DNA from: Oscillospiraceae bacterium
Lineage (GTDB): Bacteria; Bacillota; Clostridia; Oscillospirales; CAG-272
Reading direction: 5' to 3'
Length of the DNA: 64,000 nucleotides
Assembly (NCBI GenBank): GCA_015065295.1
Contig: SVQN01000003.1
Coordinates: 1,735-65,734, forward strand
Shown here piece after piece: positions 4,252-61,817 of this stretch. The position numbers and the translations under genes are program-made. Within the stretch, counting starts at the first letter, position 1, and the number at the start of each line of letters is the position of its first letter. Below the pieces are notes generated by a model. That model was not told the origin of the DNA and searched no databases. It was given only the letters and a program-made list of their open reading frames with translations.

Positions 4252-5715
4252 ATGAACCAGACGATTTATGTAAAGCGATTTGACACAGCCGCGACGTGCG
4301 ACGTGAGTGAAGATGTAGTCCTGCCGGATTACATACCGGAGGTGCGGCGGGTGATCGGCGTCCGGGCGTCGGTGTCCGCAGACGGGAAGTATCTGTCCGG
4401 CGACGAACTGGAGACGGACGGCGGCGTGACCTACAACGTCCTGTATGTCGGCGGGGACGGGGCGATCTGCATGACCTCGCACACGTCATCCTATACGGGG
4501 CACATTCCGGTGAAGGCGGAGGACGACCGGTTCACGCCGCAGGATATTGTGCTGTCGTGTACGGCGGAAAACGTGAACTGCCGGGTGACGGCTCCGCGGA
4601 AACTCACGCTGTCGTCGAAAGTGCGGATGAAAATCCTGTCCCAGAAGCCCGTGGATGTGACGATGAAGGCAGACGGGGACTGTCCGGTGCGGCGGAAGAC
4701 GGAGGTGCATCCGGCGGCGGTCATGGCGGAGTACCGGCAGACGGGGGAATGCGGCGGCGAGATCCGCGAACGGGAAGGAATGCAGGTGATCGCGGCGAAC
4801 GGGGAGCTTTGCCTGACGGAGGTGCGCGGAACCGGCGGGACGATGACCGTGAAGGGGGACGCTTATGTAACGGCGTTGCTGCTGTCGCCGGAAGGCAGTT
4901 ATGTAACGGCGAAGTCGCGGATTCCGGTGGAGGAAGAAATCCCGGTGCCGCTGCCGATATCGGAGGAAAAGCGGGAAGTCACCGGTCACGCGGCGGCGTT
5001 CGGGGAGGTTGTTCTGCTGGAAATGGAGGCGGCAGAGGACGGCGTACTGACGTGGCGGATGGAATACGACATCGACTGCGTGGTGCTGAAATGCACGGAG
5101 ACGTCGGTGGTGACGGACGCGTATCTGGTTGGCTGTACGGACAGTCCGGAAATGGCGGCGTACGATTCGGTCTATCCGGCGGGAGCGGTGAACGGCCGTC
5201 TGACGATTCAGGAAACGGCGAAGCTGAAGCCGGGGATGGCATACGTCTGCGCGTGGGGACGTGCGACGGCAGACCGGATCGAAACGTCGAAAAACCGGAT
5301 GATCCTGACGGGGAACGCAGTTCTGTCGATTGTGGAATCCGGCAACGGCGAAGCGATCCTCGACGAACTGACGCTCCCCTACCGCTACGAATGTGAAGCA
5401 CTGACCCCGGAGACGGTAGACCCGGCCTGTCTGCTCGGCAAGCACAGTGTCCGCGTGACGGACATTCAGGCGCGCGCCGACGGCGACGTTCTGACCCTGA
5501 CCGCCGAGCTTGCCCTATCCGCCGCCATTCTCGGCGTGGAGACGATCAAATGCGTTTCCTCTATCGCCCCTGTACCGGATGCCGCTTCCTCCCGGAAAAC
5601 CGACGTTCTCCTCCGTCTCTACGTTCCCGACGAGGGTGAGACTGCGTGGGATGTGGAGAAGCGGTTCCGTCTGGGGCGCGATGCGAAGGCGGAGGGGGCT
5701 GTGTATGTGATCTGA
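4252..5715 (+). CDS. DUF3794-like (sporulation-associated) protein
   Basis: 487 aa. A GGAGG RBS is present. The N-terminal 'VLPDYIPEVRRVIGV' resembles the DUF3794 signature. The frame is coherent and high in GC3. Confidence 0.6.
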   Translation: MNQTIYVKRFDTAATCDVSEDVVLPDYIPEVRRVIGVRASVSADGKYLSGDELETDGGVTYNVLYVGGDGAICMTSHTSSYTGHIPVKAEDDRFTPQDIVLSCTAENVNCRVTAPRKLTLSSKVRMKILSQKPVDVTMKADGDCPVRRKTEVHPAAVMAEYRQTGECGGEIREREGMQVIAANGELCLTEVRGTGGTMTVKGDAYVTALLLSPEGSYVTAKSRIPVEEEIPVPLPISEEKREVTGHAAAFGEVVLLEMEAAEDGVLTWRMEYDIDCVVLKCTETSVVTDAYLVGCTDSPEMAAYDSVYPAGAVNGRLTIQETAKLKPGMAYVCAWGRATADRIETSKNRMILTGNAVLSIVESGNGEAILDELTLPYRYECEALTPETVDPACLLGKHSVRVTDIQARADGDVLTLTAELALSAAILGVETIKCVSSIAPVPDAASSRKTDVLLRLYVPDEGETAWDVEKRFRLGRDAKAEGAVYVI

Positions 5716-5737
5716 GGTGGGGGGGGGCGGATTTCTT

Positions 5738-6406
5738 GGGGAAACCTTTTTGAGGAAAAGGTTTCCCCAAACCCCTTCCAAAACCTTTTTAGGCGGCGGT
5801 AGCCGGTTAGTATAGTTGATATGATGGGGAGGGGGAAAGAAGAAAAACTCCGTGGAGTTCGGCTTAAGAGTGTTCGGCCCGTTGACGTGGGGATGGTTTG
5901 AAATTCTACGAAAATTGTTCTGGGGAAGTCAGGGACCGCCCCCCTGACTTCCCACGCCATTTTACGACTGCGCGATATAGTACGTCAATTTTGAATTCAG
6001 CTACGGTTCGTTGGTTTTCCGCGCGGCTTGGCTCGCCCGCCGTCCGCGCTTTGCGATCGTTCGGTTGGCTGACATACAGTTGTTTGACACAAAGCACGAA
6101 CGGCGACAGCCAAGGAGTGCGGGGGATGATAAAATGTAGCTGAATTCAAACGTGGCGCACTTCATCAATGTATCTCCATACGGCGTGGGAAGTCAGGGTC
6201 TTGGCGGAGCCTGACTTCCCCAAAACGATTTTCGTGGAATTTCAAACCAACGTCATGTCAGCGGATGGGATCAACGAAATGTCAGCGCAGATACCCAAGA
6301 AAATCCCCAGAAAAGAAAAAATCTGCAATAACCAAATGGCTATAACAGATCAAAGAGGTTTGGAGGGGAGTTTGAGGGGAACCTTTCCTCTGAAAAGGTT
6401 CCCCTC
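5738..6406. repeat. Foldback element family F3, copy A (inverted dimer tipped by H1 hairpins)
   Basis: The H1 hairpin+tail at 5738-5792 is mirrored at 6352-6406. Both arms carry the internal conserved blocks TTGGTTTGAAATTCTACGAAAAT and GGAAGTCAGG...CCTGACTTCC. The element is homologous to 22402-23089 and 34983-35640. Confidence 0.9.
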
Positions 6407-6437
6407 AAGAATTTCAACCGTACAATATTTGATAGAA

Positions 6438-7400
6438 TTACTGACCGAGAACAGCAGCACCGATGATGCCGGCGTCGTTGCCGAGCTTGGCGATGAGGAT
6501 CTGGGTCTGGGGAGTGCCTTCGCGGGAGTAGGTTTCGGACCATACTTTTTCGAGAAGGGGCTTCATGAGGTTGTCGCCTTCGTTGCAGACACCGCCGCCG
6601 ATGGAGAGAACGTTGGGCTGGAAGATGTTGATGACGTTGACGATACCGGTAGCGAGGTAGCTGATGTATTCGTCTACGACTTCTGCGCCGAGAGCGTCGC
6701 CGGCCTTCTGGGCATTGAACGCGGTGCGTGCGGAAACCTTGTCGAGGTCGCCGCCGATCATTTCTTCCATCATGGTTTCGCGGCCGGATTCACGGGCAGC
6801 GAGGATCGCGTCCTTGGTCATGTTAACGAGACCGGTTGCGGAGGAGTAAGCTTCCCAGCAGCCCTTTCTGCCGCAGGAGCACTGACGGCCGCCCTTTTCG
6901 ATAACGATGTGGCCGAGTTCCGCACCGGCGAAGTTGAAGCCGGAGTATACCTTGCCGTTGATAACGATACCGCCGCCGAGACCGGTGCCGAGGGTAATCA
7001 TAACGGAGTAGGGTGCGCCCTTCGCTACGCCTGCCATAGCTTCTGCCTTGGCTGCTGCGTTTGCGTCGTTTTCAATGTAGACCGGCTTGCCGTCGAGGAG
7101 AGCGGAGAGCTTGTCTGCGAGGGGGTACTGCAGGAAGGGGATGTTGTTTGCGTATTCAACAACGCCGGTTTCGTTGTTCGCGGTACCGGGGGTTGCTACG
7201 CCTGCGGATGCGATGTCATCCATCGTGATGCCCATTTCTGCGATGAGCTTGCGGGAGAGTGCCGCCATATCTTCTACGATCGCGTCTGCACCGCGTTCGG
7301 GCTTGGTGGGGGTGCTGCCCTTCTTAACGATTTCGAAGTCTTCGTTTACGATACCGATGGCGATGTTGGTTCCGCCAAGGTCTACGCCAATGTAATACAT
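6438..7400 (-). CDS. glcK: ROK-family glucokinase
   Basis: 320 aa with 'IGVDLGGTN', 'ENDANAAA' and the ROK zinc motif 'CSCGRKGCWEAY'. Confidence 0.9.
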   Translation of the reverse strand: MYYIGVDLGGTNIAIGIVNEDFEIVKKGSTPTKPERGADAIVEDMAALSRKLIAEMGITMDDIASAGVATPGTANNETGVVEYANNIPFLQYPLADKLSALLDGKPVYIENDANAAAKAEAMAGVAKGAPYSVMITLGTGLGGGIVINGKVYSGFNFAGAELGHIVIEKGGRQCSCGRKGCWEAYSSATGLVNMTKDAILAARESGRETMMEEMIGGDLDKVSARTAFNAQKAGDALGAEVVDEYISYLATGIVNVINIFQPNVLSIGGGVCNEGDNLMKPLLEKVWSETYSREGTPQTQILIAKLGNDAGIIGAAVLGQ

Positions 7401-7526: not shown

Positions 7527-8021
7527 GGAAGAAAAAAGTACCGGAACGGTACTTTTTTCAAAATTTTATGTCCCTGCGCGGGACGGCGCATAAGCGGAGT
7601 TCACGAAGTGAACTCCACCGGTCGCGGCCCTCTTATGAATCTCCCCGACCAGAGGAGGTTTCCTCTGGACTCCTCTCGTTCGTGGGACTCGGCCTTAGGG
7701 CCTCAGACAGACAGCGGTTTGCCCGCATTCAGATTGTTAGGAAGAGACAAGGTACTGTGCAAACTTGTCCAAATCGTTCGTTCACTACAAACAGCCGTGA
7801 AGTATAACTAAAAATTTAGGTTCCACCTTTTTGATAAACCATATTTCTGTTCTTCCGTGCGATTTGCTGGGTGCAAACTGCTGTCTGTCTGAGCCCTCAA
7901 GGGCGAGTCCCCCGAACGCCAAGCCGGGAATTCATAAAGGGGCGGCGATTGAGCCCCTTTATGCGCCGTCCCGCGCAGGGACATAAAATTGAAAAATGAC
8001 CGGAACGGTCATTTTTCTTCC
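7527..8021. repeat. Foldback element family F2, full inverted copy
   Basis: Terminal hairpins are GAAAAAAGTACCGGAACGGTACTTTTTTC (left) and GAAAAATGACCGGAACGGTCATTTTTC (right). The arms share ATGTCCCTGCGCGGGACGGCGCATAA...GGGACTCG.CCTT.AGGGC.TCAGACAGACAGC.GTTTGC in inverted orientation. Confidence 0.9.
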
Positions 8022-8029
8022 TTTCCGCC

Positions 8030-8058
8030 TTGCACTTTCCGTCATTTTATTGTAAAAT
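8030..8058 (+). promoter_or_regulatory. Putative promoter of the cysteine desulfurase gene
   Basis: TTGCAC-17 nt-TAAAAT, ~28 nt upstream of the TTG start. Confidence 0.4.
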
Positions 8059-22350: not shown

Positions 22351-22386
22351 CCAAGGGGAACCGTTTCTGGTTCCCCTTGGTTTTTT
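22351..22386 (+). terminator. Intrinsic terminator of the uptake operon
   Basis: CCAAGGGGAACC-gtttct-GGTTCCCCTTGG followed by TTTTTT. Confidence 0.8.
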
Positions 22387-22401
22387 CTTTTTGTTTTTCT
22401 T

Positions 22402-23089
22402 GGGGGAACCTTTTTGAGGAAAAGGTTCCCCCAAACCCCTTCCAAAACCTTTTTAGGCGGTTGTTGCCGGTTTGTTTGGTTTATATGATGGGGAGGGGAA
22501 AAAGGAAAAAACTCCGTGGAGTACAGCTGAAATTTGTTAGACCTGTTGACATGGGGCTGGTTTGAATTTCTACGAAAATCGTTATGGGGAAGTCAGGCTC
22601 CGCCAAGACCCTGACTTCCCTCGCCATGCAGCGACTGCGCGATTTAATACGCCACGATTGAATTCAGCTACATTTTATTGGTTTTCCGCGCGGCTTGGCT
22701 CGCCCGCCGTCCGCGCTTTTCGTCAGTGAGAGCGGCTGACATACAGTTTTCTTCGAAAAGCACGAACGGCGTCAGCCAAGGAGTGCGGGGGATGACGATA
22801 TGTAGCTGAATTTTGACGTGACGCACTTCATCGATGTATCTCCATACGGCGTGGGAAGTCAGGGTTGGAGTTGCGAAGCAATCTCCTGCGGAGCCTGACT
22901 TCCCCAGAACGATTTTCATAGAATTTCAAACCAACGAAATGTCAGTGGATGGGATGCACAAAATGGCTACGCACAGACCCAAGAAAATCCCCCAGAAAAG
23001 AAAAAATCTGCACAGTTGAAATCACTGTAGCAGATGAAAAAGGTTTGGGAAGGGGTTTGGGGGAACCTTTTCCTCAAAAAGGTTCCCCC
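22402..23089. repeat. Foldback element family F3, copy B
   Basis: H1 tips lie at 22402-22456 and 23036-23089. It aligns along its whole length with copies A and C, and the right flank AAGAAAAAGAAACCCGCACTC is shared with copy C. Confidence 0.9.
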
Positions 23090-23114
23090 AAGAAAAAGAA
23101 ACCCGCACTCAACA

Positions 23115-24056
23115 TCATTCCCCCGGAATAACATCCTCCGGAAGCGGCTCCAGAGCGGCGGAACTTTTGAGCTTGAAAGAAACGGGGAGATAGACAATCG
23201 TGCCTTCCTCTTCGTTGGAGGCAGACTCGTCGATCATGCGGGAGATGAGGACTTTGGATTTGCGCTCGTCGTATTGGCAGGAAAGGTTGTTCATGTAGTC
23301 GGTCAGGAAAGTCGAGGAAACCCAAACTTCCGTGCCGCGGAGAATGTTCGGGATCTCGAGCTGGGCGGTCTGACCGTTGATTTCGATGATCTGTCCGCCG
23401 ATCGGGAAGACGATCATTTCTTCGCGGCCCGTGCCGGCAGCGGTGGGGGGGAGACTTTCGGCCATCGGGAGGATGAATTTCATCGCTTCCGCCGAACCGC
23501 TTTCCATCATGCCCAGATAGTCCGCTACGTCGTTGAAGCAGACGTAGACAACGCCGTCCGCAATGGCTTCTTCGATCGGTGCTTTCCGGATTTCGCTGCC
23601 GCCGTAGGTGTAGGTGATCGTGCCTGTCGTGTCCGGCTTGTCCGGCGCATGGTTGAAAAAGATCAGGAATACCAGCCCGAACAGGAGACAGAGAATGACC
23701 AGAATGATGAAGAATACCAGAAGGCGGCCGCCTAAAATTGCCAGATTCCTCTTGAATTGGCGTTCGCGTTCCGCTTTCTTCCGCTGCTTTTCACGCCGTT
23801 CGTGATCCCGCATCGCCTGACGGCGCGCCTCTGCCTGACGGCGTTCCAGCTCACGGCGGCGTCGGGTCGCTTCCGATTCCGGATAAACTCCGTCCTGACG
23901 CGGATACGGGCGCGGAGGTACGCCGTATCCGTTTCCGACCGGATTTTGCGGCGGCCGGTTATTCTTCGGACGGGGGACGCCGGCGTTTCCGCGACGCTGC
24001 GGAGGTCTGCCGCCGCGATTGTTCGGCCGCTGACCCCGGTTGGGATTGTTGTTCAT
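23115..24056 (-). CDS. Membrane-anchored protein: Arg/Pro-rich disordered N-terminus, one TM helix, extracellular copper-amine-oxidase-N-like (stalk) domain
   Basis: 313 aa. The N-terminus is 'NRGQRPNNRGGRPPQRRGN...', the TM helix is 'LLVFFIILVILCLLFGLVFLIFF', and 'IIEINGQTAQLEIPNILRGTEVWVSSTFLTDYM' fits the stalk-domain pattern. Confidence 0.6.
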   Translation of the reverse strand: MNNNPNRGQRPNNRGGRPPQRRGNAGVPRPKNNRPPQNPVGNGYGVPPRPYPRQDGVYPESEATRRRRELERRQAEARRQAMRDHERREKQRKKAERERQFKRNLAILGGRLLVFFIILVILCLLFGLVFLIFFNHAPDKPDTTGTITYTYGGSEIRKAPIEEAIADGVVYVCFNDVADYLGMMESGSAEAMKFILPMAESLPPTAAGTGREEMIVFPIGGQIIEINGQTAQLEIPNILRGTEVWVSSTFLTDYMNNLSCQYDERKSKVLISRMIDESASNEEEGTIVYLPVSFKLKSSAALEPLPEDVIPGE

Positions 24057-24650: not shown

Positions 24651-24706
24651 CGGGGAAACCTTTTATAGAAAAACGTTTTCCCCGAACCCCTTTCAAAAAA
24701 TTTTAG
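24651..24706 (+). repeat. H1 hairpin-plus-tail repeat
   Basis: CGGGGAAACCTTTT-atag-AAAAACGTTTTCCCCG followed by AACCCCTTTCAAAAAATTTTAG. Confidence 0.85.
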
Positions 24707-24724
24707 ACTATATGGAGAAATATA

Positions 24725-24780
24725 GGCTGTACAATCGGTTTGATATTCCCAGTTCCGCACCAAACCTTATCAATCCATAT
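24725..24780 (-). repeat. Module M4 (ATATGGATTGAYAAGGTT.GGTGC...), inverted partner of 25509-25562
   Basis: The reverse complement ATATGGATTGATAAGGTTTGGTGCGGAACTGGGAATATCAAACCGATTGTACAGCC aligns with 25509-25562. Confidence 0.75.
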
Positions 24781-24786
24781 CGTGTA

Positions 24787-24839
24787 AAAGTTTTTGAAAA
24801 GGGGTTTGGGGAGAAACTTTTTTCAAAAAGTTTCTCCCC
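24787..24839 (-). repeat. H1 hairpin-plus-tail repeat
   Basis: AAAAGTTTTTGAAAAGGGGTTT followed by GGGGAGAAACTTTTTTCAAAAAGTTTCTCCCC. Confidence 0.85.
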
Positions 24840-25448: not shown

Positions 25449-25505
25449 CGGGGAGGGACTTTTTGAAAAAAGTCCCTCCCCGAACCCCTCTTCAAAAACT
25501 TTTAA
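25449..25505 (+). repeat. H1 hairpin-plus-tail repeat
   Basis: CGGGGAGGGACTTTTTGAAAAAAGTCCCTCCCCG followed by AACCCCTCTTCAAAAACTTTTA. Confidence 0.85.
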
Positions 25506-25508
25506 CCT

Positions 25509-25562
25509 ATATGGATTGACAAGGTTGGGTGCAGATTTAGGATACCAAACCGGCGATGAAGC
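25509..25562 (+). repeat. Module M4, inverted partner of 24725-24780
   Basis: ATATGGATTGACAAGGTTGGGTGCAGATTTAGGATACCAAACCGGCGATGAAGC. Confidence 0.75.
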
Positions 25563-25615
25563 TGACAAAATTATGTTCCTTCAAATTTGCACTTACTTTG
25601 TCATCCTAATTGTTT

Positions 25616-25666
25616 GAAGTTTTTTGGAAGGGGTTTGGGGAAACCTTTTTGCAAAAAGGTTTCCCC
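25616..25666 (-). repeat. H1 hairpin-plus-tail repeat (preceded by an F2-type fragment TTCAAATTTGCACTTACTTTGTC)
   Basis: GAAGTTTTTTGGAAGGGGTTT followed by GGGGAAACCTTTTTGCAAAAAGGTTTCCCC. Confidence 0.85.
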
Positions 25667-30865: not shown

Positions 30866-31225
30866 TTCAAACTGTTCGTTTGAATTGATTAGGAAGAAAA
30901 ATGACCGTTCCGGTCATTTTTCAATTTTATGTCCCTACGCGGGACGGCGCACAAAGGGGCTCAGTCGCCGCCCCTTTGTGAATTCCCGGCTTGGCGTTCG
31001 GGGGACTCGCCCTTAAGGGCTCGGACAGACAGCGGTTTGCCCGCATTCAGACTTTTAGGAAGAAACGAGGTTTGGGTGCAAATCTGTCCAAATCGTACGT
31101 TCAGTAGAAACAGCCGTGGAGTGTTCTTCAAATTTGCACTTGCTTTGTCTGTCTTTTTCAGATGGAAGCTTTTTGAAAGGGGTTCGGGGAAAACTTTTTC
31201 TCGAAAAAGTTTTCCCCGAGGACTT
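30866..31225. repeat. F2 partial foldback plus H1 hairpin, filling the rplI-dnaB spacer
   Basis: CAAACTGTTCGTTTG, the terminal hairpin GAAAAATGACCGTTCCGGTCATTTTTC, and ATGTCCCTACGCGGGACGGCGCACAAAGGGGC...GGACAGACAGCGGTTTGC...GCACTTGCTTTGTCTGTC, followed by H1 at 31165-31220. Confidence 0.9.
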
Positions 31226-33813: not shown

Positions 33814-34842
33814 TTACTGCCATTCGCGGTTGGCACGATCGCGCTGTTTTCTGCGTTTTTTGAGAAAATCGGCGATCACGAAATACGCGCCGGCGACGGA
33901 GAGGATCATGGCGGCATTGACGATGCCGAGAGCAGCGAACGCCATGACCATCAGCAGGGCGGTGAGGGCACGTTTCCGGCTGGCGTAGTACATCCGTGCA
34001 CGGATTTTGCGGAGGGTGATGGAGATTCCGACCGCCGTACAGGGGAGCATCATGGCAATCATGACGCTGTTGAGGAGGGTATAGAGGAGCGGTGCCTGTT
34101 CGGGTGCAGTCATCATGGTGAGCAGGAACGCGGACGCATAGATGACGGCGAACGGTACGGGGAGGGTGATGCGGTGGGTGATGCCGATAAACAGGTCGGT
34201 ACAGGCGAGGAGGCGGAACATACTTTTTGCGAGGAGTTCGGTAAACCACGCGAACGCGGTTGCGAGAACGACGGTAAGGGCGGGGGTAAGCACGAGGATC
34301 CCGCGCGCGGCTTCGCGGACATAGGATTCCGTGGCGGGCATTCCGTAGGCATTTCCGAGCAGGGCGGACAGTCCGTCCATGCAGAGAGTGACAAACGCTT
34401 CATACGATTCCGCGCGGAACCCGGCAAACGCCACGGCTGTCAGGGCGAGGCATACCGCTGCGGCTGCCGTCAGCGACCCGATTCGTTTGAATTTCGGTTC
34501 CCGGGAAATCAGGGACACCGCGAACACATACGACATGAGCAGGGTAGACAGTGTGATCGTCACGGCGGCGAACAGCGACGAACCGGACAGGATCATGGCG
34601 GCGAAGGTCAGCGGCGTTGCACACAGGGAAGCGGCCTTCCGCCAGAGCAGGATGATGAGCGCATACAGGCAGGTGGCTACCGCGACAAACGGCAGTGCTG
34701 CCGCCGCACCGGGCAGATCCTCGGAGGCAAGCCGTCCGGCGGCCGACGCCAGCACAAGGGTACCCGCCGTCATGAGAACCACCAGCGGGATCGTCATCTC
34801 CGGCAGGTCGTCCCGTTTCCTCATTACGGAGAACATTCGCAT
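33814..34842 (-). CDS. YybS-like polytopic membrane protein (DUF2232)
   Basis: 342 aa from the ATG at 34842 (GGGAGG lies 7 nt upstream). It is highly hydrophobic and upstream of gdpP, as in Bacillus yybS-yybT-rplI-dnaC. Confidence 0.7.
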   Translation of the reverse strand: MRMFSVMRKRDDLPEMTIPLVVLMTAGTLVLASAAGRLASEDLPGAAAALPFVAVATCLYALIILLWRKAASLCATPLTFAAMILSGSSLFAAVTITLSTLLMSYVFAVSLISREPKFKRIGSLTAAAAVCLALTAVAFAGFRAESYEAFVTLCMDGLSALLGNAYGMPATESYVREAARGILVLTPALTVVLATAFAWFTELLAKSMFRLLACTDLFIGITHRITLPVPFAVIYASAFLLTMMTAPEQAPLLYTLLNSVMIAMMLPCTAVGISITLRKIRARMYYASRKRALTALLMVMAFAALGIVNAAMILSVAGAYFVIADFLKKRRKQRDRANREWQ

Positions 34843-34982
34843 TTCCGCACCTCCCTTGCTTTTCCATCGGCATACTTTTTCCATTTTAGTTTACTTCTTA
34901 TTATACCATATTTGCGGGAAGATATCTACGGGTACATGAAAAATTTACATCATGGGGGTGAGGTGGATTCTTGGGGAAACCT

Positions 34983-35640
34983 TTTTGAGGAAAAGGTTTC
35001 CCCAAACCCCTTCCAAAACCTTTTTAATCGGTTGTTGCCGGTTTGTTTGGCTGATATGATGGGGAGGGGGCTTTTTGAAATATACCGTGGAGTTCGGCTG
35101 AAATTTGTTAGACCTGTTGACATGGGGTTGGTTTGAATCTCTACGAAAATCGTTTTGGGGAAGTCAGGCTCCGCCAAGACCCTGACTTCCCACGCCATGT
35201 TGCGACTGCATGATATAGTACGCCACGATTGAATTCAGCTACGGTTTATTGGGTTTCCGCGCGTCTTGGCTCGCCCGCCGTCCGCGCTTTGCGTTCGTTT
35301 GGTCGGCTGACATACAGTCTTCTTTGAAAAGCACGAACGGCGTCAGCCAAGGAGTGCGGGGGATGACGGTATGTAGCTGAATTTTGACGTGACGCACTTC
35401 ATTAACGTATCCCTTCCGGCAACGGAAGTCAGGGTCTTGGCGGAGCCTGACTTCCCCGTTATAATTTTCGTAGAATTTCAAACCAACATCATGTCAGCGG
35501 ATGGGATCAACCAAATGGCTACGCACAGACCCATGAAAATCCCCCTCCAAACAAAAAATCTGCACATCCTATATTTGATAGCAGATGAAAAAGGTTTTGG
35601 AAGGGGTTTGGGGGAACCTTTTCCTCAAAAAGGTTCCCCC
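34983..35640. repeat. Foldback element family F3, copy C
   Basis: H1 tips lie at 34983-35036 and 35587-35640. It aligns with copy B over the full length. Confidence 0.9.
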
Positions 35641-35727
35641 AAGAAAAAGAAACCCGCACTCTCTTGATTTTCCCCGCCAACTATGATAAACTAATACCGA
35701 CAAAACATCCCACGAAAGGAAAAGAAC

Positions 35728-37491
35728 ATGGGAATTATTACTTATAACGACAAAGCGTTTCTGATGGACGGGAAGGAATATACCATCGTGTCCGGCGCGA
35801 TGCATTACTTCCGGATTCCGCGCGAGTATTGGACGGATCGGCTCACGAAGCTGAAGGAGTGCGGCTTCAATACCGTGGAAACGTATACCTGCTGGAACCT
35901 GCATGAACCCAAGGAAGGCGAGTTTGACTTTACCGGAATGCTCGACCTCGCGGCGTATGTGGACGAGGCTGCAAAACTGGGGCTGAACGTCATTCTTCGT
36001 CCGGGTCCGTATATCTGCAGCGAGTGGGAGTTCGGCGGACTGCCCGCATGGCTTCTCAGCTACGAAAACATCGCCATCCGCTGCAACGACGAACGCTTCC
36101 TTGAAAAGGTTCGCCGCTACTATCATGCGCTGTTTGAACATCTCGGTACCGGCCGTCTTGCAACCCACGGCGGCAATATCGTCATGGTGCAGATCGAAAA
36201 CGAATACGGCTCCTATGGTGACGATAAGGAATACCTCAACGCCGTTGTCGATATCTACCGCGAATGCGGCGTCGACTGCACGCTGTTCACCTCCGACGGT
36301 GCCTGCGACTGGATGCTCTCCGGCGGTACCCTGCCCGGATACCTCTGCGTTGCCAACTTCGGTTCCCATCCGAAGGAAAATTTCGCCGAACTGAAGAAGT
36401 TCCGCGATAATCAGCCTTCCATGTGCGGCGAATACTGGTGCGGCTGGTTCGATCACTGGTACGAAGAACACCACGTCCGCGAAGCCGAAGAACTCGCCGG
36501 CCTGTTCCGCGATATGCTGAACGCGGGCGCGTCCCTCAACTTCTATATGTTCCACGGCGGTACCAACTTCGGCTTCATGAACGGTGCAAACCACGGCGGC
36601 AAGTATGAACCCACCATCACCAGCTACGACTACAACGCGCTCCTCAGCGAAGCCGGCGATATGACACCCGCGTATTACGCTGTCCGTAAGATCAACGAAG
36701 AATTCTTCGGCAGCGTTCCCGAAATCACCACCAAGAATTCCGAAAAGAAGGCGTACGGCAAGGTAACGCTCACCGAAAAGGCGTTTGTCCTCGATACCGT
36801 GGACTCCATTTCCGCTCCCGTACATACCGCCGCTCCGAAGTTCATGGAAGAAATCGGTCAGGGCTACGGCTTCACGCTGTACTCCACCACCGTCAAGGGA
36901 CCGATGGGTGAAAACGGCGGTCTGCCGCTCCGTTATGACTGCGTTCACGACCGCGCGATCGTTTTCGTGAACGGCGAAAAGAAGGGTTGGATCGAACGTT
37001 CCCGCCACGCGGACGACATCCGTCTGTCCGTCAAGACCGGCGAAGAAGTCAAGGTCGATATCCTTGTCGAAAACATGGGACGCATCAACTACGGACCCGA
37101 AATGCGCGACAAGAAGGGTATGACCGGCATCCGCTTCGGTCAGCGCAACCACTACGGCTGGGATATGTACCCCATGGAAATGAAGGATCTCTCCGGCGTG
37201 AAGTACGAAGCGTGTGACGGCGGCGTGGATGCGTCCTCCTTCCTGCGCGGTACGCTCACCATCGAAGGCGAACCCTGCGATACCTTCATCAAGCTCGACG
37301 GCTTCCACCACGGCTTTGTGACCGTCAACGGCTTCAACCTCGGCCGCTACTACAACGACGCAGGCCCGCAGAAGACCCTGTACTGCCCCGCACCGATGCT
37401 CAAATCCGGCGACAACGAAATTATTGTATTCGAAATGGACTCCAGCGACAGAAACGTCATCGAATTCGTGGACGTTCCGGAACTGGGTTAA
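35728..37491 (+). CDS. Beta-galactosidase, glycoside hydrolase family 35
   Basis: 587 aa. 'GAMHYFRIPREYWTDRLTKLKECGFNTVETY', 'RPGPYICSEWEFGGLPAWL' and 'QIENEYGSYG'. Confidence 0.9.
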   Translation: MGIITYNDKAFLMDGKEYTIVSGAMHYFRIPREYWTDRLTKLKECGFNTVETYTCWNLHEPKEGEFDFTGMLDLAAYVDEAAKLGLNVILRPGPYICSEWEFGGLPAWLLSYENIAIRCNDERFLEKVRRYYHALFEHLGTGRLATHGGNIVMVQIENEYGSYGDDKEYLNAVVDIYRECGVDCTLFTSDGACDWMLSGGTLPGYLCVANFGSHPKENFAELKKFRDNQPSMCGEYWCGWFDHWYEEHHVREAEELAGLFRDMLNAGASLNFYMFHGGTNFGFMNGANHGGKYEPTITSYDYNALLSEAGDMTPAYYAVRKINEEFFGSVPEITTKNSEKKAYGKVTLTEKAFVLDTVDSISAPVHTAAPKFMEEIGQGYGFTLYSTTVKGPMGENGGLPLRYDCVHDRAIVFVNGEKKGWIERSRHADDIRLSVKTGEEVKVDILVENMGRINYGPEMRDKKGMTGIRFGQRNHYGWDMYPMEMKDLSGVKYEACDGGVDASSFLRGTLTIEGEPCDTFIKLDGFHHGFVTVNGFNLGRYYNDAGPQKTLYCPAPMLKSGDNEIIVFEMDSSDRNVIEFVDVPELG

Positions 37492-41886: not shown

Positions 41887-41942
41887 GAAGTTTTTTGAAA
41901 GGGGTTCGGGGAAAACTTTTTCGAAAAAAAGTTTTCCCCGAG
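41887..41942 (-). repeat. H1 hairpin-plus-tail repeat
   Basis: GAAGTTTTTTGAAAGGGGTT followed by CGGGGAAAACTTTTTCGAAAAAAAGTTTTCCCCGAG. Confidence 0.85.
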
Positions 41943-42782: not shown

Positions 42783-43154
42783 CCAAACTGTTCGTTTGGA
42801 TTAATAGGTAGAAAAATGACCGGAACGGTCATTTTTCAATTTTTATGTCCTACGCGGACGGCGCACAAAGGGGCTCAAACGCCGCCCCTTTGTGAATTGC
42901 TGGCTTGGAAATCGTTCGGGGGACTCGGCCTTAGGGCCTCGGACAGACAGCGGTTTGCACGCGGCAGACCGTTCGGAAGGGACAAGGTTTGGGTGCAGAG
43001 CTGTCCAAAACGGTCGTTCAGTAGAAACAGCCGTGGAGTGTGGCGTTGTTTTTACTTTTTTCTTTCGATCTGCACTCGCTTTGTCTGTCCTTTTTATTAA
43101 AAAGGTTTTTGGAGGGGTGCGGGGAACCTTTTTCCTTAAAAAAGGTTCCCCGCG
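42783..43154. repeat. F2 partial foldback plus H1 hairpin, filling the pgk-tpiA spacer
   Basis: Same module order as 30866-31225: CAAACTGTTCGTTTG, GAAAAATGACCGGAACGGTCATTTTTC, ...GGACAGACAGCGGTTTGCAC...GCACTCGCTTTGTCTGTCC, then H1 at 43098-43154. Confidence 0.9.
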
Positions 43155-45644: not shown

Positions 45645-45734
45645 AAACTATTGGATGGACTTGTAGGGAGTGGTACTTTCGACACAAATATTGATTACGG
45701 AAAACGATCTGTAAACAAGCCGAACGCTACCCTT

Positions 45735-46050
45735 TGTCATTCCGAGGACTTATCTCTATAAATTATAGCTGAAGTTCTTGTCCGAGGAATCTTTGCACTC
45801 CCCTGTGTCAGCCGTAAGAGATGTCTGTGGTTATCATACAGTTTTAGCTCCAGAGGTTACACTTTGTTATAACAAATAGTTTGCTGTTCCTATATTGGTA
45901 CACAATGTTTATAAGGACAAAGTTGAACCTCTGAAGCTGAAATTTTATCACAACCACGGACATTTTTTACGGCTGACACAGGGGAGTGCAAAGATTCCTC
46001 GGACAAGAACTTCAGTTGTAATTTATAGAGATAAGTCCTCGGAATGACAA
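45735..46050. repeat. 316-bp near-perfect palindrome (unique family in this window)
   Basis: The outer ~84-bp arms TTGTCATTCCGAGGACTTATCTCTATAAATTA..GCTGAAGTTCTTGTCCGAGGAATCTTTGCACTCCCCTGTGTCAGCCGTAA are repeated in inverse at 45967-46050 with about 3 mismatches. The inner arms are more diverged, and the centre is near 45892. Confidence 0.9.
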
Positions 46051-46235
46051 CGTTGAGTGCGAGGGGAAAGTTTAACTTATCTTCCGTTCGTTATGACAAA
46101 GGGAAATTGAAGGGTATAGAAATCCATCGAACTTACGTTATTTTATAAAATTTCCCCGAAATCGGTAGATTCTGCGCGGGTTCTGTGGTATAATATCCCC
46201 ATCATTTATTTATGTACTGCGAAAGGATTCCATTT

Positions 46236-49193: not shown

Positions 49194-49210
49194 ATGAGAT
49201 GAAGTTTTTC

Positions 49211-49270
49211 GTGGGGAGAACCTTTTTGAGGAAAAGGTTCTCCCCACACCCCACTCCAAAACCTTTTTGG
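49211..49270 (+). repeat. H1 hairpin-plus-tail repeat
   Basis: GTGGGGAGAACCTTTTTGAGGAAAAGGTTCTCCCCAC followed by ACCCCACTCCAAAACCTTTTTGG. Confidence 0.85.
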
Positions 49271-49308: not shown

Positions 49309-49956
49309 ATGAAAAGAAATATTATGAAGTTTAAGTCGCTGGCGTTGGTACTGGCGTTGGTTCTGCCGCTTCTGGGGCTGACGTTTGCCGGATGTACGGC
49401 GCAGGATGCCGTGGACATTGCGGCGAGTGTGGCGGAAGTCGCGCTGGAAGTGATGGAAGAGGCAGATGCGGCGGATGAATCCCCGGCGGATGTGGCGGAA
49501 CTTCCGGAGGAAGAACCGGAGCCGGAACCGATCCCGGAGGAATTGCCGGAGGAAGAACCTGTTCCCGAACCTGAGCCGGAGCCGATTCCCGAACCGGAAG
49601 AGCCGGCGATTGACGAAAACGGATCGTATGACGATCGGGACAGCGTTGCGCTGTACATTTATACTTACGGAAAGTTGCCGCCGAACTATATTTCCAAGGC
49701 AGACGCGCAGGATCTCGGCTGGGAAGGCGGTTCCGTGGAACGGTATGCGCCGGGGAAGTGCATCGGCGGATCGAAATTCGGTAATTATGAGGGGCTTCTC
49801 CCGAAGAAGAGCGGACGGCAGTATTACGAATGCGACATTGACACGCTGGGCGAAAGCTCGCGCGGTGCGAAGCGGATCGTGTACTCGAACGACGGGTTGA
49901 TCTACTACACGGATGACCATTACGAATCGTTTACGCTGCTGTACGGGGAAGAATAA
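49309..49956 (+). CDS. Barnase-family (N1/T1/Sa-type) extracellular ribonuclease, lipoprotein with a Pro/Glu-rich linker
   Basis: 215 aa with the lipobox 'LTFAGC' and the linker 'ELPEEEPEPEPIPEELPEEEPVPEPEPEPIPEPEEP'. The C-terminal domain aligns with barnase: 'YGKLPPNYISKADAQDLGW', 'PGKCIGGSKFGNYEGLLPKKSGRQYYECDI', 'RIVYSNDGLIYYTDDHYESF'. Confidence 0.88.
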   Translation: MKRNIMKFKSLALVLALVLPLLGLTFAGCTAQDAVDIAASVAEVALEVMEEADAADESPADVAELPEEEPEPEPIPEELPEEEPVPEPEPEPIPEPEEPAIDENGSYDDRDSVALYIYTYGKLPPNYISKADAQDLGWEGGSVERYAPGKCIGGSKFGNYEGLLPKKSGRQYYECDIDTLGESSRGAKRIVYSNDGLIYYTDDHYESFTLLYGEE

Positions 49957-50042: not shown

Positions 50043-50113
50043 GCGGGTGTAGTTCAGTGGTAGAATTCCAGCCTTCCAAGCTGGTTATGTGGGTTCGATT
50101 CCCATCACCCGCT
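50043..50113 (+). tRNA. tRNA-Gly (anticodon UCC)
   Basis: Acceptor GCGGGTG/CACCCGC; anticodon arm CCAGC-cTTCCaa-GCTGG; T-loop TTCGATT; no encoded CCA. Confidence 0.9.
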
Positions 50114-50139
50114 TCTCCACGAAAACTGGAGATTCCTAT

Positions 50140-50216
<77 letters not shown>

Positions 50217-50349
50217 TCGCCTCACTAAGGCGAACCGGAGCAGACCGATTACGGAATGCTTTCGGGATTCCGCTTGCACCGGGATGTAATCATGTCCCTG
50301 AAACGTGTGCGGCGTTCTTATACGCTGTGGATTTATCCCAGCGATTCAC

Positions 50350-50424
50350 GGTGGACGTAGCTCAGTTGGTTAGAGCGCCAGGTTGTGGCCCTGGAGGTCG
50401 TGGGTTCGACTCCCATCGTTCACC
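50350..50424 (+). tRNA. tRNA-His (anticodon GUG) with encoded G-1
   Basis: An extra 5' G precedes the acceptor GTGGACG/CGTTCAC; anticodon arm CCAGG-tTGTGgc-CCTGG; T-loop TTCGACT. Confidence 0.9.
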
Positions 50425-50904: not shown

Positions 50905-51924
50905 TTATTGACGGTACAGTTCGTCAAGATTGTAAGAGATTATTTCCGCATCCGGTGAAGTTTGTTCGAAGAACGCGGTCAGTGCATCGTACAGTTCCGT
51001 GAACCGTTCGCGGGAGATGCCGAAATTCTGCACAAATTCCGCGATACTCCAGTTTTCCGGAGAGGTATAGCCGTGACCGGTCATCCATACGGTGTAGGTT
51101 TCCGCGTCAATTTCCCGGGTCAGGGCAAGTTTCAGCTCGGATTCAAAGGATGTAGTCCCGCTTTGCGGCGCAGCTTCTTCAACAACACATTCTTCGACCG
51201 CTTCCTCAACAACACATTCCTCGACGACCTCTTCTTCGATCAGGTCTTCCGCAGGTGCTTCTTCCGCGACCGCTTCCTCAACAACCGCTTCCTCAACGAT
51301 CGCATCTTCCGCGACCGGTTCTTCGGCAGTCGGTGCGGGAGCCATCATGACCATCGGAGCTTCCGGTTCGGGAACTTCGGCGGAATCTACGTCATCCATA
51401 ACCTCTTCCGCTTCAATTGCCGCAGAATATGCCGCCGCAGCCGCCGGTTCTTCTATTATGATTTCATCTTCGGCTTCCTCCGGAGTTGCATCCGTTGTGG
51501 TGCTGTCGGTCAGAACCGCTTTGTACAGGAAGGGGGCACCGTTTTTCGTACCGCCTGCCGCTGCCTGCGTTTCCGCGGAAGTTTCTTCCATCGGGGATTC
51601 CGGCGCGGCTCCGTCGGTATAAGCCATATCTGCCGTGAACATTGCGTTTTCGGTTTCCATGACGGCATCCTTGGTCATCATCGGAAGTACGCGGAATCCG
51701 AGAGTCACGAGGAGGACGAAGCACGCCGCGATGCTGCCGTATTTTACAAACCGGTTCCGGAATGCAGGCGTGAGAATTTTCGCTTTTTTCCGGGATTGTG
51801 CCGCTTCTGCCGTGACCTGTGCCATGACAGCGGCGTGAATGTCCTTTTTGGGGGACGGGTATGCCTCCGCGATGAGCCGCTTGTACTCGGCATCGGAGGC
51901 ATTCTGCAAATTATGATCCATCAT
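50905..51924 (-). CDS. Putative anti-sigma factor (single-pass membrane protein with acidic repeats)
   Basis: 339 aa, immediately downstream of the ECF sigma gene. The TM helix is 'YGSIAACFVLLVTLGFRVL'. The extracytoplasmic part has 'EEAVVEEAVAEEAPAEDLIEEEVVEECVVEEAVEECVVEE'. No zf-HC2 motif was seen, so the call is by position only. Confidence 0.55.
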   Translation of the reverse strand: MMDHNLQNASDAEYKRLIAEAYPSPKKDIHAAVMAQVTAEAAQSRKKAKILTPAFRNRFVKYGSIAACFVLLVTLGFRVLPMMTKDAVMETENAMFTADMAYTDGAAPESPMEETSAETQAAAGGTKNGAPFLYKAVLTDSTTTDATPEEAEDEIIIEEPAAAAAYSAAIEAEEVMDDVDSAEVPEPEAPMVMMAPAPTAEEPVAEDAIVEEAVVEEAVAEEAPAEDLIEEEVVEECVVEEAVEECVVEEAAPQSGTTSFESELKLALTREIDAETYTVWMTGHGYTSPENWSIAEFVQNFGISRERFTELYDALTAFFEQTSPDAEIISYNLDELYRQ

Positions 51925-61756: not shown

Positions 61757-61764
61757 GAGACATT

Positions 61765-61817
61765 GGGGGAAACTTTTTTTCAAAAAAGTTTCCCCCAAAC
61801 CCCTTTCAAAAAACTTC
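61765..61817 (+). repeat. H1 hairpin-plus-tail repeat
   Basis: GGGGGAAACTTTTTTTCAAAAAAGTTTCCCCC followed by AAACCCCTTTCAAAAAACTTC. Confidence 0.85.

Follow-up and report, generated by a model that had tools for sequence, protein, structure and literature searches.

What kind of element is a palindrome of about 670 bp that encodes no protein, lies between genes and recurs three times within 64 kb of a bacterial chromosome? The question is raised by positions 22400-23091 of a 64,000-nt window from contig SVQN01000003.1 of Oscillospiraceae bacterium (assembly GCA_015065295.1), where the window denotes the whole stretch of DNA that was analysed. We call the element F3 and its copies in the window A, B and C; the locus named above is copy B. 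On balance, and with some reserve, we take F3 to be a large composite repeat, non-coding and non-autonomous, that exists at the DNA level and is of the same kind as the REP, BIME and REPIN repeats. Its architecture is a conserved GC-rich central hairpin unit with interchangeable arm modules, nested between two REP-like caps. Each cap is a hairpin followed by a tail and is called the H1 unit.

All three copies are present at the coordinates given by the original prediction, give or take a few bases, when measured from hairpin foot to hairpin foot. They are intergenic and non-coding, and share 78-81% pairwise identity over their full length. Their insertion contexts are also as first described, with A and B between convergent gene 3' ends and C between divergent gene 5' ends. 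Copy A (5736-6408) lies between a SipL-like gene (4252-5715, + strand) and a ROK kinase gene (6438-7400, - strand), and copy C (34971-35642) between a DUF2232 gene (33814-34884, - strand) and a GH35 beta-galactosidase gene (35728-37491, + strand). Copy B has the 3' end of an ABC permease gene on one side and the 3' end of an unnamed gene on the other; an ordinary intrinsic terminator of the upstream permease gene (22351-22380, + strand) stands directly outside it. The structure of F3 is far above chance: the window has 12 occurrences of the H1 hairpin pattern, compared with 0 expected from shuffles, and the proposed long rod was found on both strands of copy B, which fold with -372 kcal/mol (z -17.5) and -377 kcal/mol (z -24), respectively.

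Every module named in the original prediction could be located, and the coordinates in copy B were mapped from an alignment that included reverse complements. The left H1 unit (22400-22453, + strand) consists of the hairpin TTGGGGGAACCTTTT-TGAGG-AAAAGGTTCCCCCAA (22400-22434) and the pyrimidine tail ACCCCTTCCAAAACCTTTTT (22434-22453), which is the parallel complement of the 5' arm and covaries with it. The right H1 unit (23038-23091, - strand) is inverted with respect to the left one, its tail being at 23038-23057 and its hairpin at 23057-23091. The two tips of copy B form a 65-nt inverted repeat with 97% complementarity; taken together, the arms of the terminal inverted repeats measure 59-65 nt and are 95-98% complementary. 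Inside the H1 units are the outer-arm modules, T1 on the left (22456-22557) and T2 on the right (22934-23037, as reverse complement), the latter containing GCTGACAT-type motifs. T1 is unlike the right arm and is conserved among copies, in agreement with the earlier observation that the stretches of about 100 bp between H1 and the conserved block differ between the two arms while the copies agree.

The conserved block TGGTTTGAATTTCTACGAAAAT (the TGGTTTGAAWTTCTACGAAAAT block) occupies 22558-22579, with its inverse at 22912-22933, and when read outward it contains a weak promoter-like CTGACT-18-TAGAAT. The inner hairpin, GGAAGTCAGG-loop-CCTGACTTCC, has its left copy at 22588-22619 and its right copy at 22854-22903, the right one with an extra 18-nt stem-loop that is found in copy B only. 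The central unit (22660-22813) is bounded by GAATTCAGCTAC (22660-22671) and GTAGCTGAATTT (22802-22813). Its centre (22686-22791) is GC-rich and quasi-palindromic, with the apex GGCTGACATACAG at 22734-22746. No strand is assigned to the modules between the two H1 units, nor to the three copies as a whole. Past the right tip, B and C do share AAGAAAAAGAAACCCGCACTC, as had been noticed (99% over 83 nt), and this common outer flank (23092-23110, - strand) ends in a GAGTGCGGG box (23102-23110).

Two short motifs recur with these modules. The box GAGTGCRRG is found 8 times in the window compared with 1.8 expected, and seven of the occurrences are at element tips or centres. Its positions include 6115, 22336, 22781, 23102, 35352, 35653 and 46055, in settings that comprise F3 centres, the outside of F3 tips, the terminator upstream of copy B and the end of a separate palindrome near 45.7 kb. 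In degenerate form, it stands 4-12 nt outside many F3 tips and again next to the centre. The second motif, GCTGACAT, is repeated in the arms and the centre (9 occurrences compared with 1.3 expected).

How far does the family extend? A search with a 22-nt centre pattern through the genomes of 185,579 species gave 53 loci, nearly all of them in three 'Clostridia bacterium' metagenome-assembled genomes (MAGs) from the ruminant gut: RGIG1778 (about 30), RGIG7288 (about 22) and RGIG2226 (1). Many of these centre matches are located at contig ends. The + strand half of the centre had given only chance matches in high-GC genomes and a hairpin pattern had given two true loci; the pattern from the other half of the centre was the one that recovered the family. 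The expectation of further copies beyond the three was therefore borne out, with at least 50 in two related MAGs. Four more copies, all truncated, came from a metagenome collection, and the family had no match in the plasmid, phage and viral-contig collections searched. Literature searches brought up no described equivalent of the repeat in Clostridia or the rumen. The family is restricted to a small clade of uncultured Clostridia from herbivore guts (Oscillospirales-like MAGs).

Module maps of 21 full copies, drawn with the centre held in one orientation, reveal a mosaic. The outer arms T1 and T2 (which are diverged homologues), the inner module and the terminal hairpins are all shuffled between copies and between genomes. 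For the inner module there are two alternatives, the GGAAGTCAGG hairpin and an unrelated segment X1, and the terminal hairpin is of one of three types, H1w, H1a and H1b. The order of modules is H1-T2-hairpin-centre-hairpin-T1-H1 in the window copies and H1-T1-X1-centre-hairpin-T2-H1 in the RGIG1778 copies, where T1 is on the opposite side of the centre, while most RGIG7288 copies have T2 on both sides. Therefore, the palindromy varies among F3 copies. Over the 21 copies, the folding energy ranges from -256 to -524 kcal/mol and the number of long-range pairs from 25 to 225; the arms are quite unequal in RGIG1778, with 25-100 long-range pairs compared with up to 225 in RGIG7288. The description of F3 as a tail-to-tail inverted dimer thus applies to the window copies and does not apply to the family, where the modules are shuffled and the arms elsewhere unequal. 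The inverted-dimer shape is a state of some genomes, not a defining feature of F3. As for sequence conservation, the mean pairwise identity is 0.84-0.93 in the centre, 0.3-0.75 in the arms and lowest at the tips, and one of the two best centre segments in this profile lay outside the search pattern. Genomes also differ in which way the centre points with respect to arms and flanks.

Nor is F3 one indivisible unit. Its H1 tips are independent and far commoner than F3 itself: 14 H1 hairpins exist in the 64 kb, including solo units and doublets of about 150-220 bp. Single-hairpin units are located at 31183-31220, 41905-41942, 43118-43154, 49210-49245 and 61762-61799. They lie a few to a few tens of bases 3' of the stop codons of genes for L9, TIM, PGK, an M16 peptidase and an ABC transporter, and each presents the hairpin and then the tail along the direction of transcription. 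Two doublets flank the POR gamma-subunit gene, at 24651-24838 (about 190 bp) and 25449-25666 (about 220 bp). In two relatives (L172 and L173), doublets occur at the same two intergenic sites with stems that are different but compensated, and these doublets are kept in relatives whose neighbouring protein is only 62% identical. H1-like units were also found in more distant Eubacteriales MAGs.

We collected 84 distinct H1 units. They begin with YYC-GGGG, their outer 25 nt are C-poor, and their stems vary through compensatory changes. In 63 of the 84, an open reading frame (ORF) of at least 100 codons that reads in the direction from hairpin to tail comes to its end 6-40 nt (median 16) upstream of the hairpin. 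Of 23 units that appear to be solo, nine have a gene in the sense direction only, four in the reverse direction only and seven in both.

The covariation within H1 involves the tail as well as the stem. The tail matches the 5' purine arm read in parallel (G-C, A-T, C-C), so that it is a mirror repeat of the 3' arm. The correspondence from stem to tail holds for G-C at 308 of 333 positions, for A-T at 192 of 212 and for C-C at 106 of 107. For 38 unique arm/tail pairs the ungapped match is 0.767, compared with 0.684 +/- 0.019 after shuffling, a value that none of 2000 shuffles reached, and at the variable positions 2, 4 and 5 the position-specific association has p values of about 0.001-0.005. 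The alternative that the tail is a direct or an inverted copy of a stem arm was rejected, with scores of 0.19-0.25 compared with 0.66 for the parallel-complement model. The order of blocks in the unit is purine arm, loop, pyrimidine arm, 3-nt linker and mirror pyrimidine tail. This is the layout of the classical intrastrand triplex of the pyrimidine motif, built from C+.G-C and T.A-T triplets, and judging from its sequence the H1 unit looks able to fold into an intrastrand triple helix. Errors of replication or copying yield direct or inverted repeats, not mirror repeats. The mirror covariation, which goes beyond such errors, therefore argues for selection on Hoogsteen pairing. H1 was also considered as an intrinsic terminator and rejected as such, having no U-tract and not being detected by the terminator scan.

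Different species share the fixed intergenic sites at which F3 copies reside, and a full copy can be replaced there by a doublet or a single hairpin. At site C (between the DUF2232 and GH35 genes), F3 is also present in RGIG7288 (L063) and in fecal_MAG_213 (L086), both with H1b tips. The same site in RGIG1778 (L085) has only a 42-nt perfect hairpin, GGGGAAACGGTCGCTTTCTT-GA-AAGAAAGCGACCGTTTCCCC, which equals the two outer halves of H1b tips and retains the right-hand CCGCAC box. At site A (between the ROK and SipL-like genes), RGIG7288 has an H1a...H1b doublet of about 200 bp with only the outermost parts of the arms and no centre, and a solo H1, tail included, occupies the site in a more distant relative (L079/L080). 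At site B, a gap of 95 bp with an ordinary bidirectional terminator and no H1 was found in L173, where the neighbouring protein is 62% identical; in the closer relative L172, H1 is present and the contig breaks there. Five more sites are occupied in both RGIG1778 and RGIG7288. In three of five orthologous pairs the centre has opposite orientations relative to the flanks, although two of these three are contig-end fragments.

Within a single species, site A could be followed through ten contigs from at least nine samples, five of which span copy A and five of which break inside it. Copy A together with both of its unique flanks is 100% identical over 830 bp in the five spanning contigs; two contigs that break inside it are 100% identical over the 731-754 bp that they hold, and three more match copy A at 99.5%, 97% and 91%. 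The 91% contig (L074) comes from another strain whose ROK protein is identical. It differs from copy A at 46 positions, and 30 of the 46 differences match copy C, in blocks. In the 97% contig (L073), again with an identical ROK protein, there is a block that matches B and C. Such blockwise matches to paralogues are the signature of gene conversion between dispersed copies.

The copies also show concerted evolution. Within one genome, F3 copies share identities of 0.74, 0.68 and 0.80, compared with 0.50-0.60 between genomes; orthologous pairs reach only 0.61 (L047/L057) and 0.50 (copy C/L063), despite flanks that are 80-90% identical. Paralogues in one genome are thus more alike than orthologues at one site, and the copies are homogenised per genome.

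To which known system does such a family belong? The original prediction could not place F3 in a described bacterial repeat class. F3 is not outside all of them: its behaviour is most like that of the REP/BIME/REPIN repeats, and the BoxC/PIT triplex repeats of E. coli (PMC4666352) come nearest to its H1 unit. Like the REP/BIME/REPIN repeats, which in Proteobacteria are linked to the RAYT (TnpA-REP) transposases, F3 is intergenic and non-coding, is often at gene 3' ends and has no target-site duplication. Both systems use short palindromic units that occur solo, as hairpin-forming inverted doublets and in mosaics, at high copy number. Both also persist vertically at orthologous sites, and here site C and five more sites are filled across species. 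For REP/BIME/REPIN repeats, three papers describe persistence at orthologous sites and vertical inheritance (PMC3116915, PMC8266576, 10.1101/2021.07.10.451892). On the other hand, F3 is 5-20 times larger, its host belongs to the Clostridia and is not a proteobacterium, and neither H1 nor the outer flank has a GTAG/CGTC head motif. In addition, a regular-expression scan (not a profile search) of 584 kb of related DNA gave no RAYT-like gene.

The dispersed intrastrand-triplex repeats BoxC/PIT/TMECO are an established bacterial class, found in E. coli and others (Holder et al. 2015, PMC4666352). H1 has the three consecutive blocks that this class requires. It is likewise dispersed and intergenic, with local rearrangement or deletion at its sites. 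TMECO is G/C-only and of the purine motif, consisting of CCCTCNCCC, a loop, GGGNGAGGG, N3 and GGGNGAGGG again, and it has been linked to local instability (PMC4666352). H1, unlike TMECO, has a mixed G/A purine arm and a pyrimidine third strand (C+.G-C, T.A-T), runs on into an A/T stem and caps larger elements. The paper on these triplex repeats makes no mention of Clostridia or Firmicutes (PMC4666352). In form only, F3 also resembles the eukaryotic Foldback (FB) transposons, with long modular inverted arms, a hairpin spanning the whole element and variable arm composition; FB arms, however, are tandem arrays of subrepeats, and some FB copies have transposase genes and target-site duplications. 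When compared with the REP/BIME/REPIN and BoxC/PIT repeats, F3 is much larger and has different sequences. Its notable features are the unusual size, the conserved centre with variable tips, and the mirror-type covariation of the capping units.

If F3 is a composite repeat of this kind, its history could be as follows. Gene conversion would homogenise the copies, acting from copy to copy as well as from one arm to the other within a copy, and conversion between arms would explain the inverted-dimer look of the window copies. Recombination between the inverted arms would flip the centre, and internal deletion would give rise to doublets and single hairpins. As a guess, existing H1 hairpins would probably be the points where new copies are seeded, through recombination or through a hairpin-recognising enzyme of the HUH/Y1 type as for REPINs. 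H1 would then be the link to the host, likely acting either on the upstream transcript's 3' end or on the structure of the local DNA.

The alternative that survives best is that F3, or at least its centre and H1 tips, acts as RNA, which we regard as possible though rather unlikely. H1 would be a hairpin plus triple helix that protects or defines the 3' end of the upstream mRNA, while read-through transcripts would contain the long rod as a double-stranded RNA that is processed or has a regulatory role. Several observations agree with this. The centre is the best conserved part and has two U.G pairs that are invariant on one strand; most H1 units lie shortly past stop codons (the 63 of 84 mentioned above); the solo units with only a hairpin-to-tail gene outnumber those with only a reverse one (nine compared with four); and the weak outward promoter-like sites are conserved in the arms. 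Moreover, the strand of the incoming transcript always reads purine-pyrimidine-pyrimidine, i.e. a triplex of the pyrimidine type. RNA can form this type but not purine-motif triple helices (PMC4666352).

The folding data point in the other direction. Over 21 copies, the difference in folding energy between the two strands has a mean of -0.1 kcal/mol, with nine of the 21 favouring one strand (Wilcoxon p = 0.97), and for lack of asymmetry a strand-specific RNA rod was rejected. Arm modules swap sides, and the reversal of the centre relative to the flanks in three of five orthologous pairs also speaks against RNA function. The centre stem is invariant in 32 copies, and so there is no compensatory change in it. 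F3 matches no Rfam family: at gathering thresholds, the window gives only three tRNAs, and at E<=10 the F3 element gives only hairpin noise. The missing U-tract and the negative terminator scan of H1 count against the reading as well, and copy C lies between two gene starts and not between gene ends.

A role at the protein level does not fare better. The 'MAWEVR' ORFs had been judged to be broken by indels between copies, and this is correct; stop-free stretches that read outward are common, their frames differ by 1-nt indels from copy to copy, and all three are frequently open, so that a protein-coding 'MAWEVR...' reading was rejected. The 'MAWEVR...PDF' peptide is the translation of the conserved inner hairpin. 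A 5-codon ORF after AAGGAG in the centre was discarded as well, not being conserved in the sequences of relatives. Taken together, the lack of strand asymmetry, of compensatory change and of frame conservation favours a repeat at the DNA level, while leaving room for an RNA role of the centre.

A version of the RNA reading that joins these points deserves to be stated, at the same tentative level. H1 might be a bacterial RNA triple-helix module about 16 nt past stop codons that folds in the mRNA from the purine arm, the pyrimidine arm and a Hoogsteen pyrimidine tail and defines or protects 3' ends, with F3 as a nested expansion between two such modules; we would not expect this to be the case, but it is a live possibility. 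By analogy, and with equally limited expectation, H1 could then be a prokaryotic counterpart of the triple helices of the ENE/MALAT1 type. F3 itself might be selfish or regulatory, and its conserved centre might have a function of its own, e.g. as a binding site or a small RNA, which again seems to us a minority prospect.

A less probable alternative, which we consider unlikely, is that F3 is a MITE (a miniature transposable element with inverted repeats), an internal-deletion derivative of an insertion sequence (IS) moved by a DDE transposase acting on the terminal inverted repeats of about 60 bp. With a length of about 670 bp, many intergenic copies, a fold-back structure and terminal inverted repeats of 62-65 nt at 95-97%, F3 falls within a loose definition of a MITE, and contigs of related MAGs break inside copies as they do at IS elements and MITEs. 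Known bacterial MITEs (Correia, ERIC, RUP, BOX, Nezha) are, like F3, multi-copy and non-coding, with terminal inverted repeats, long stem-loops and in some cases promoter-like sites. However, they are marked by defined termini like those of a parent IS, by a target-site duplication or by both, whereas for F3 no parent IS turned up in the window or in about 580 kb of related DNA and no target-site duplication was seen, and F3 combines variable termini with a conserved centre. Three types of terminus sequence exist in this one family, and its constant part is the centre. No direct repeat flanks A, B, C or 18 related copies; the bases adjoining the F3 tips form inverted repeats right up to the final base and not direct ones, which counts against a target-site duplication. 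At copy A, an apparent GRATTTC repeat was examined as such a duplication and rejected, because it belongs to the H1 outer consensus and does not occur at B and C. A group II intron, suggested by GTGCG-like ends, was also rejected, since the box is inverted at both ends and no intron domains are found in Rfam. Non-syntenic loci have no repeat above 900 bp in common within about 580 kb of related DNA. The statement that no transposase is nearby was confirmed for the whole window, which has no recombinase either and contains housekeeping genes. Finally, most of the compared copies are at orthologous sites across species, and therefore recent transposition is not evident.

It is very improbable that F3 is an invertible switch, in which a recombinase would flip the centre at the GAATTCAGCTAC inverted repeats and cause phase variation of the neighbouring genes. 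Inverted repeats of 12 nt do bracket the centre, and the centre does occur in both orientations relative to the arms and, in orthologous pairs, to the flanks. All ten contigs of site A nevertheless have a single orientation, and seven of them are identical over the part of the element they hold. No recombinase gene is nearby, the bracketing repeats are often non-complementary in the RGIG MAGs (GAATTCAGCTAC compared with GTAGAAGGATTTC), and homologous recombination, with the long inverted arms as partners, accounts for rare flips over evolutionary time. We give almost no credence to the last alternative, that the palindromes are chimeric joins made by the assembler: related short-read assemblies frequently break within the element, but copy A is recovered identically with its unique flanks by independent metagenome assemblies (five spanning contigs, and five broken ones at 91-100%), hence its palindrome is real, and MAGs of other species hold orthologous F3 copies.

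The preferred reading, a composite DNA-level repeat of the REP/BIME/REPIN kind, has its own weak points. No mobilising enzyme was found, and a regular-expression scan for HUH/Y1 enzymes in 584 kb of related DNA was empty. REPINs conserve their terminal palindromes, while F3 conserves its centre and varies its tips; the best-conserved centre points to a central function that the reading does not supply. The two U.G pairs of the centre stem, invariant on one strand, suit a single-stranded, strand-specific form. The triplex in H1 is deduced from covariation alone, and its C+.G-C triplets need protonated cytosine. The hairpin-only site of RGIG1778 could be an unoccupied target and not a deletion scar; parsimony does not decide between the two, because the three species compared are roughly equidistant by flank identity. 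In addition, the conversion blocks that vary among strains could partly be due to chimeric assembly of repeats from short reads.

Apart from its repeats, the window is ordinary chromosome, with genes for DnaB, L9, GdpP, DXS, TIM, PGK, POR subunits, ABC transporters and a sigma factor, and its species is also represented by the NCBI MAG GCA_017620495.1. Proteins of the window carry the source labels 'Oscillospiraceae' or 'Clostridia bacterium'. A second repeat family, GC-rich and structured-looking (GGACGGCGCACAAAGGGGCTC...GCCGCCCCTTTGTGAAT), is located at 7560-8040 as an inverted pair, with other copies between the L9 and DnaB genes and between the PGK and TIM genes (30890-31140 and 42805-43041). 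The last two have the hairpin AAAAATGACCGnnCGGTCATTTTT on one side and an H1 unit on the other, and the family has no Rfam match. The separate palindrome at 45734-46050 has 150-nt arms with 87% complementarity and a 17-nt spacer, and lies where the gene strand switches from - to +. It shares GCACTCC and GTCAGCCG motifs with the F3 centre, and a GAGTGCGAG box comes after it at 46055-46063.

Beside copy B, the homologues of the protein encoded at 23115-24056 were found nearly always on public contigs of only 1-3 kb, which suggests that assembly-breaking repeats enclose the gene in many related genomes. An ORF at 133-702, on the edge of the window, encodes the C-terminal part of a TraG/TrwB-type coupling protein; it adjoins an M48 peptidase gene and may be the end of a conjugative element. 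Three tRNA genes form a cluster at 50043-50424. In-frame tandem repeats exist within coding regions at 49494-49589 (periods of 12-18 nt), a Pro/Glu-rich stretch of a secreted protein with a ribonuclease domain, and at 51163-51324 (15 nt).

Dispersed repeats of bacteria are known mostly from Proteobacteria and a few pathogens, and F3 represents a large, modular and palindrome-rich system in uncultured gut Clostridia. In each genome it interrupts short-read assemblies at dozens of sites. The family also provides a clean natural case for the concerted evolution of dispersed repeats, for the symmetrisation of palindrome arms and for the decay, at orthologous sites, of elements to hairpin scars. 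Finally, the covariation of H1 makes the long-suspected role of intrastrand triplexes in bacteria directly testable, whether in DNA or at mRNA 3' ends.

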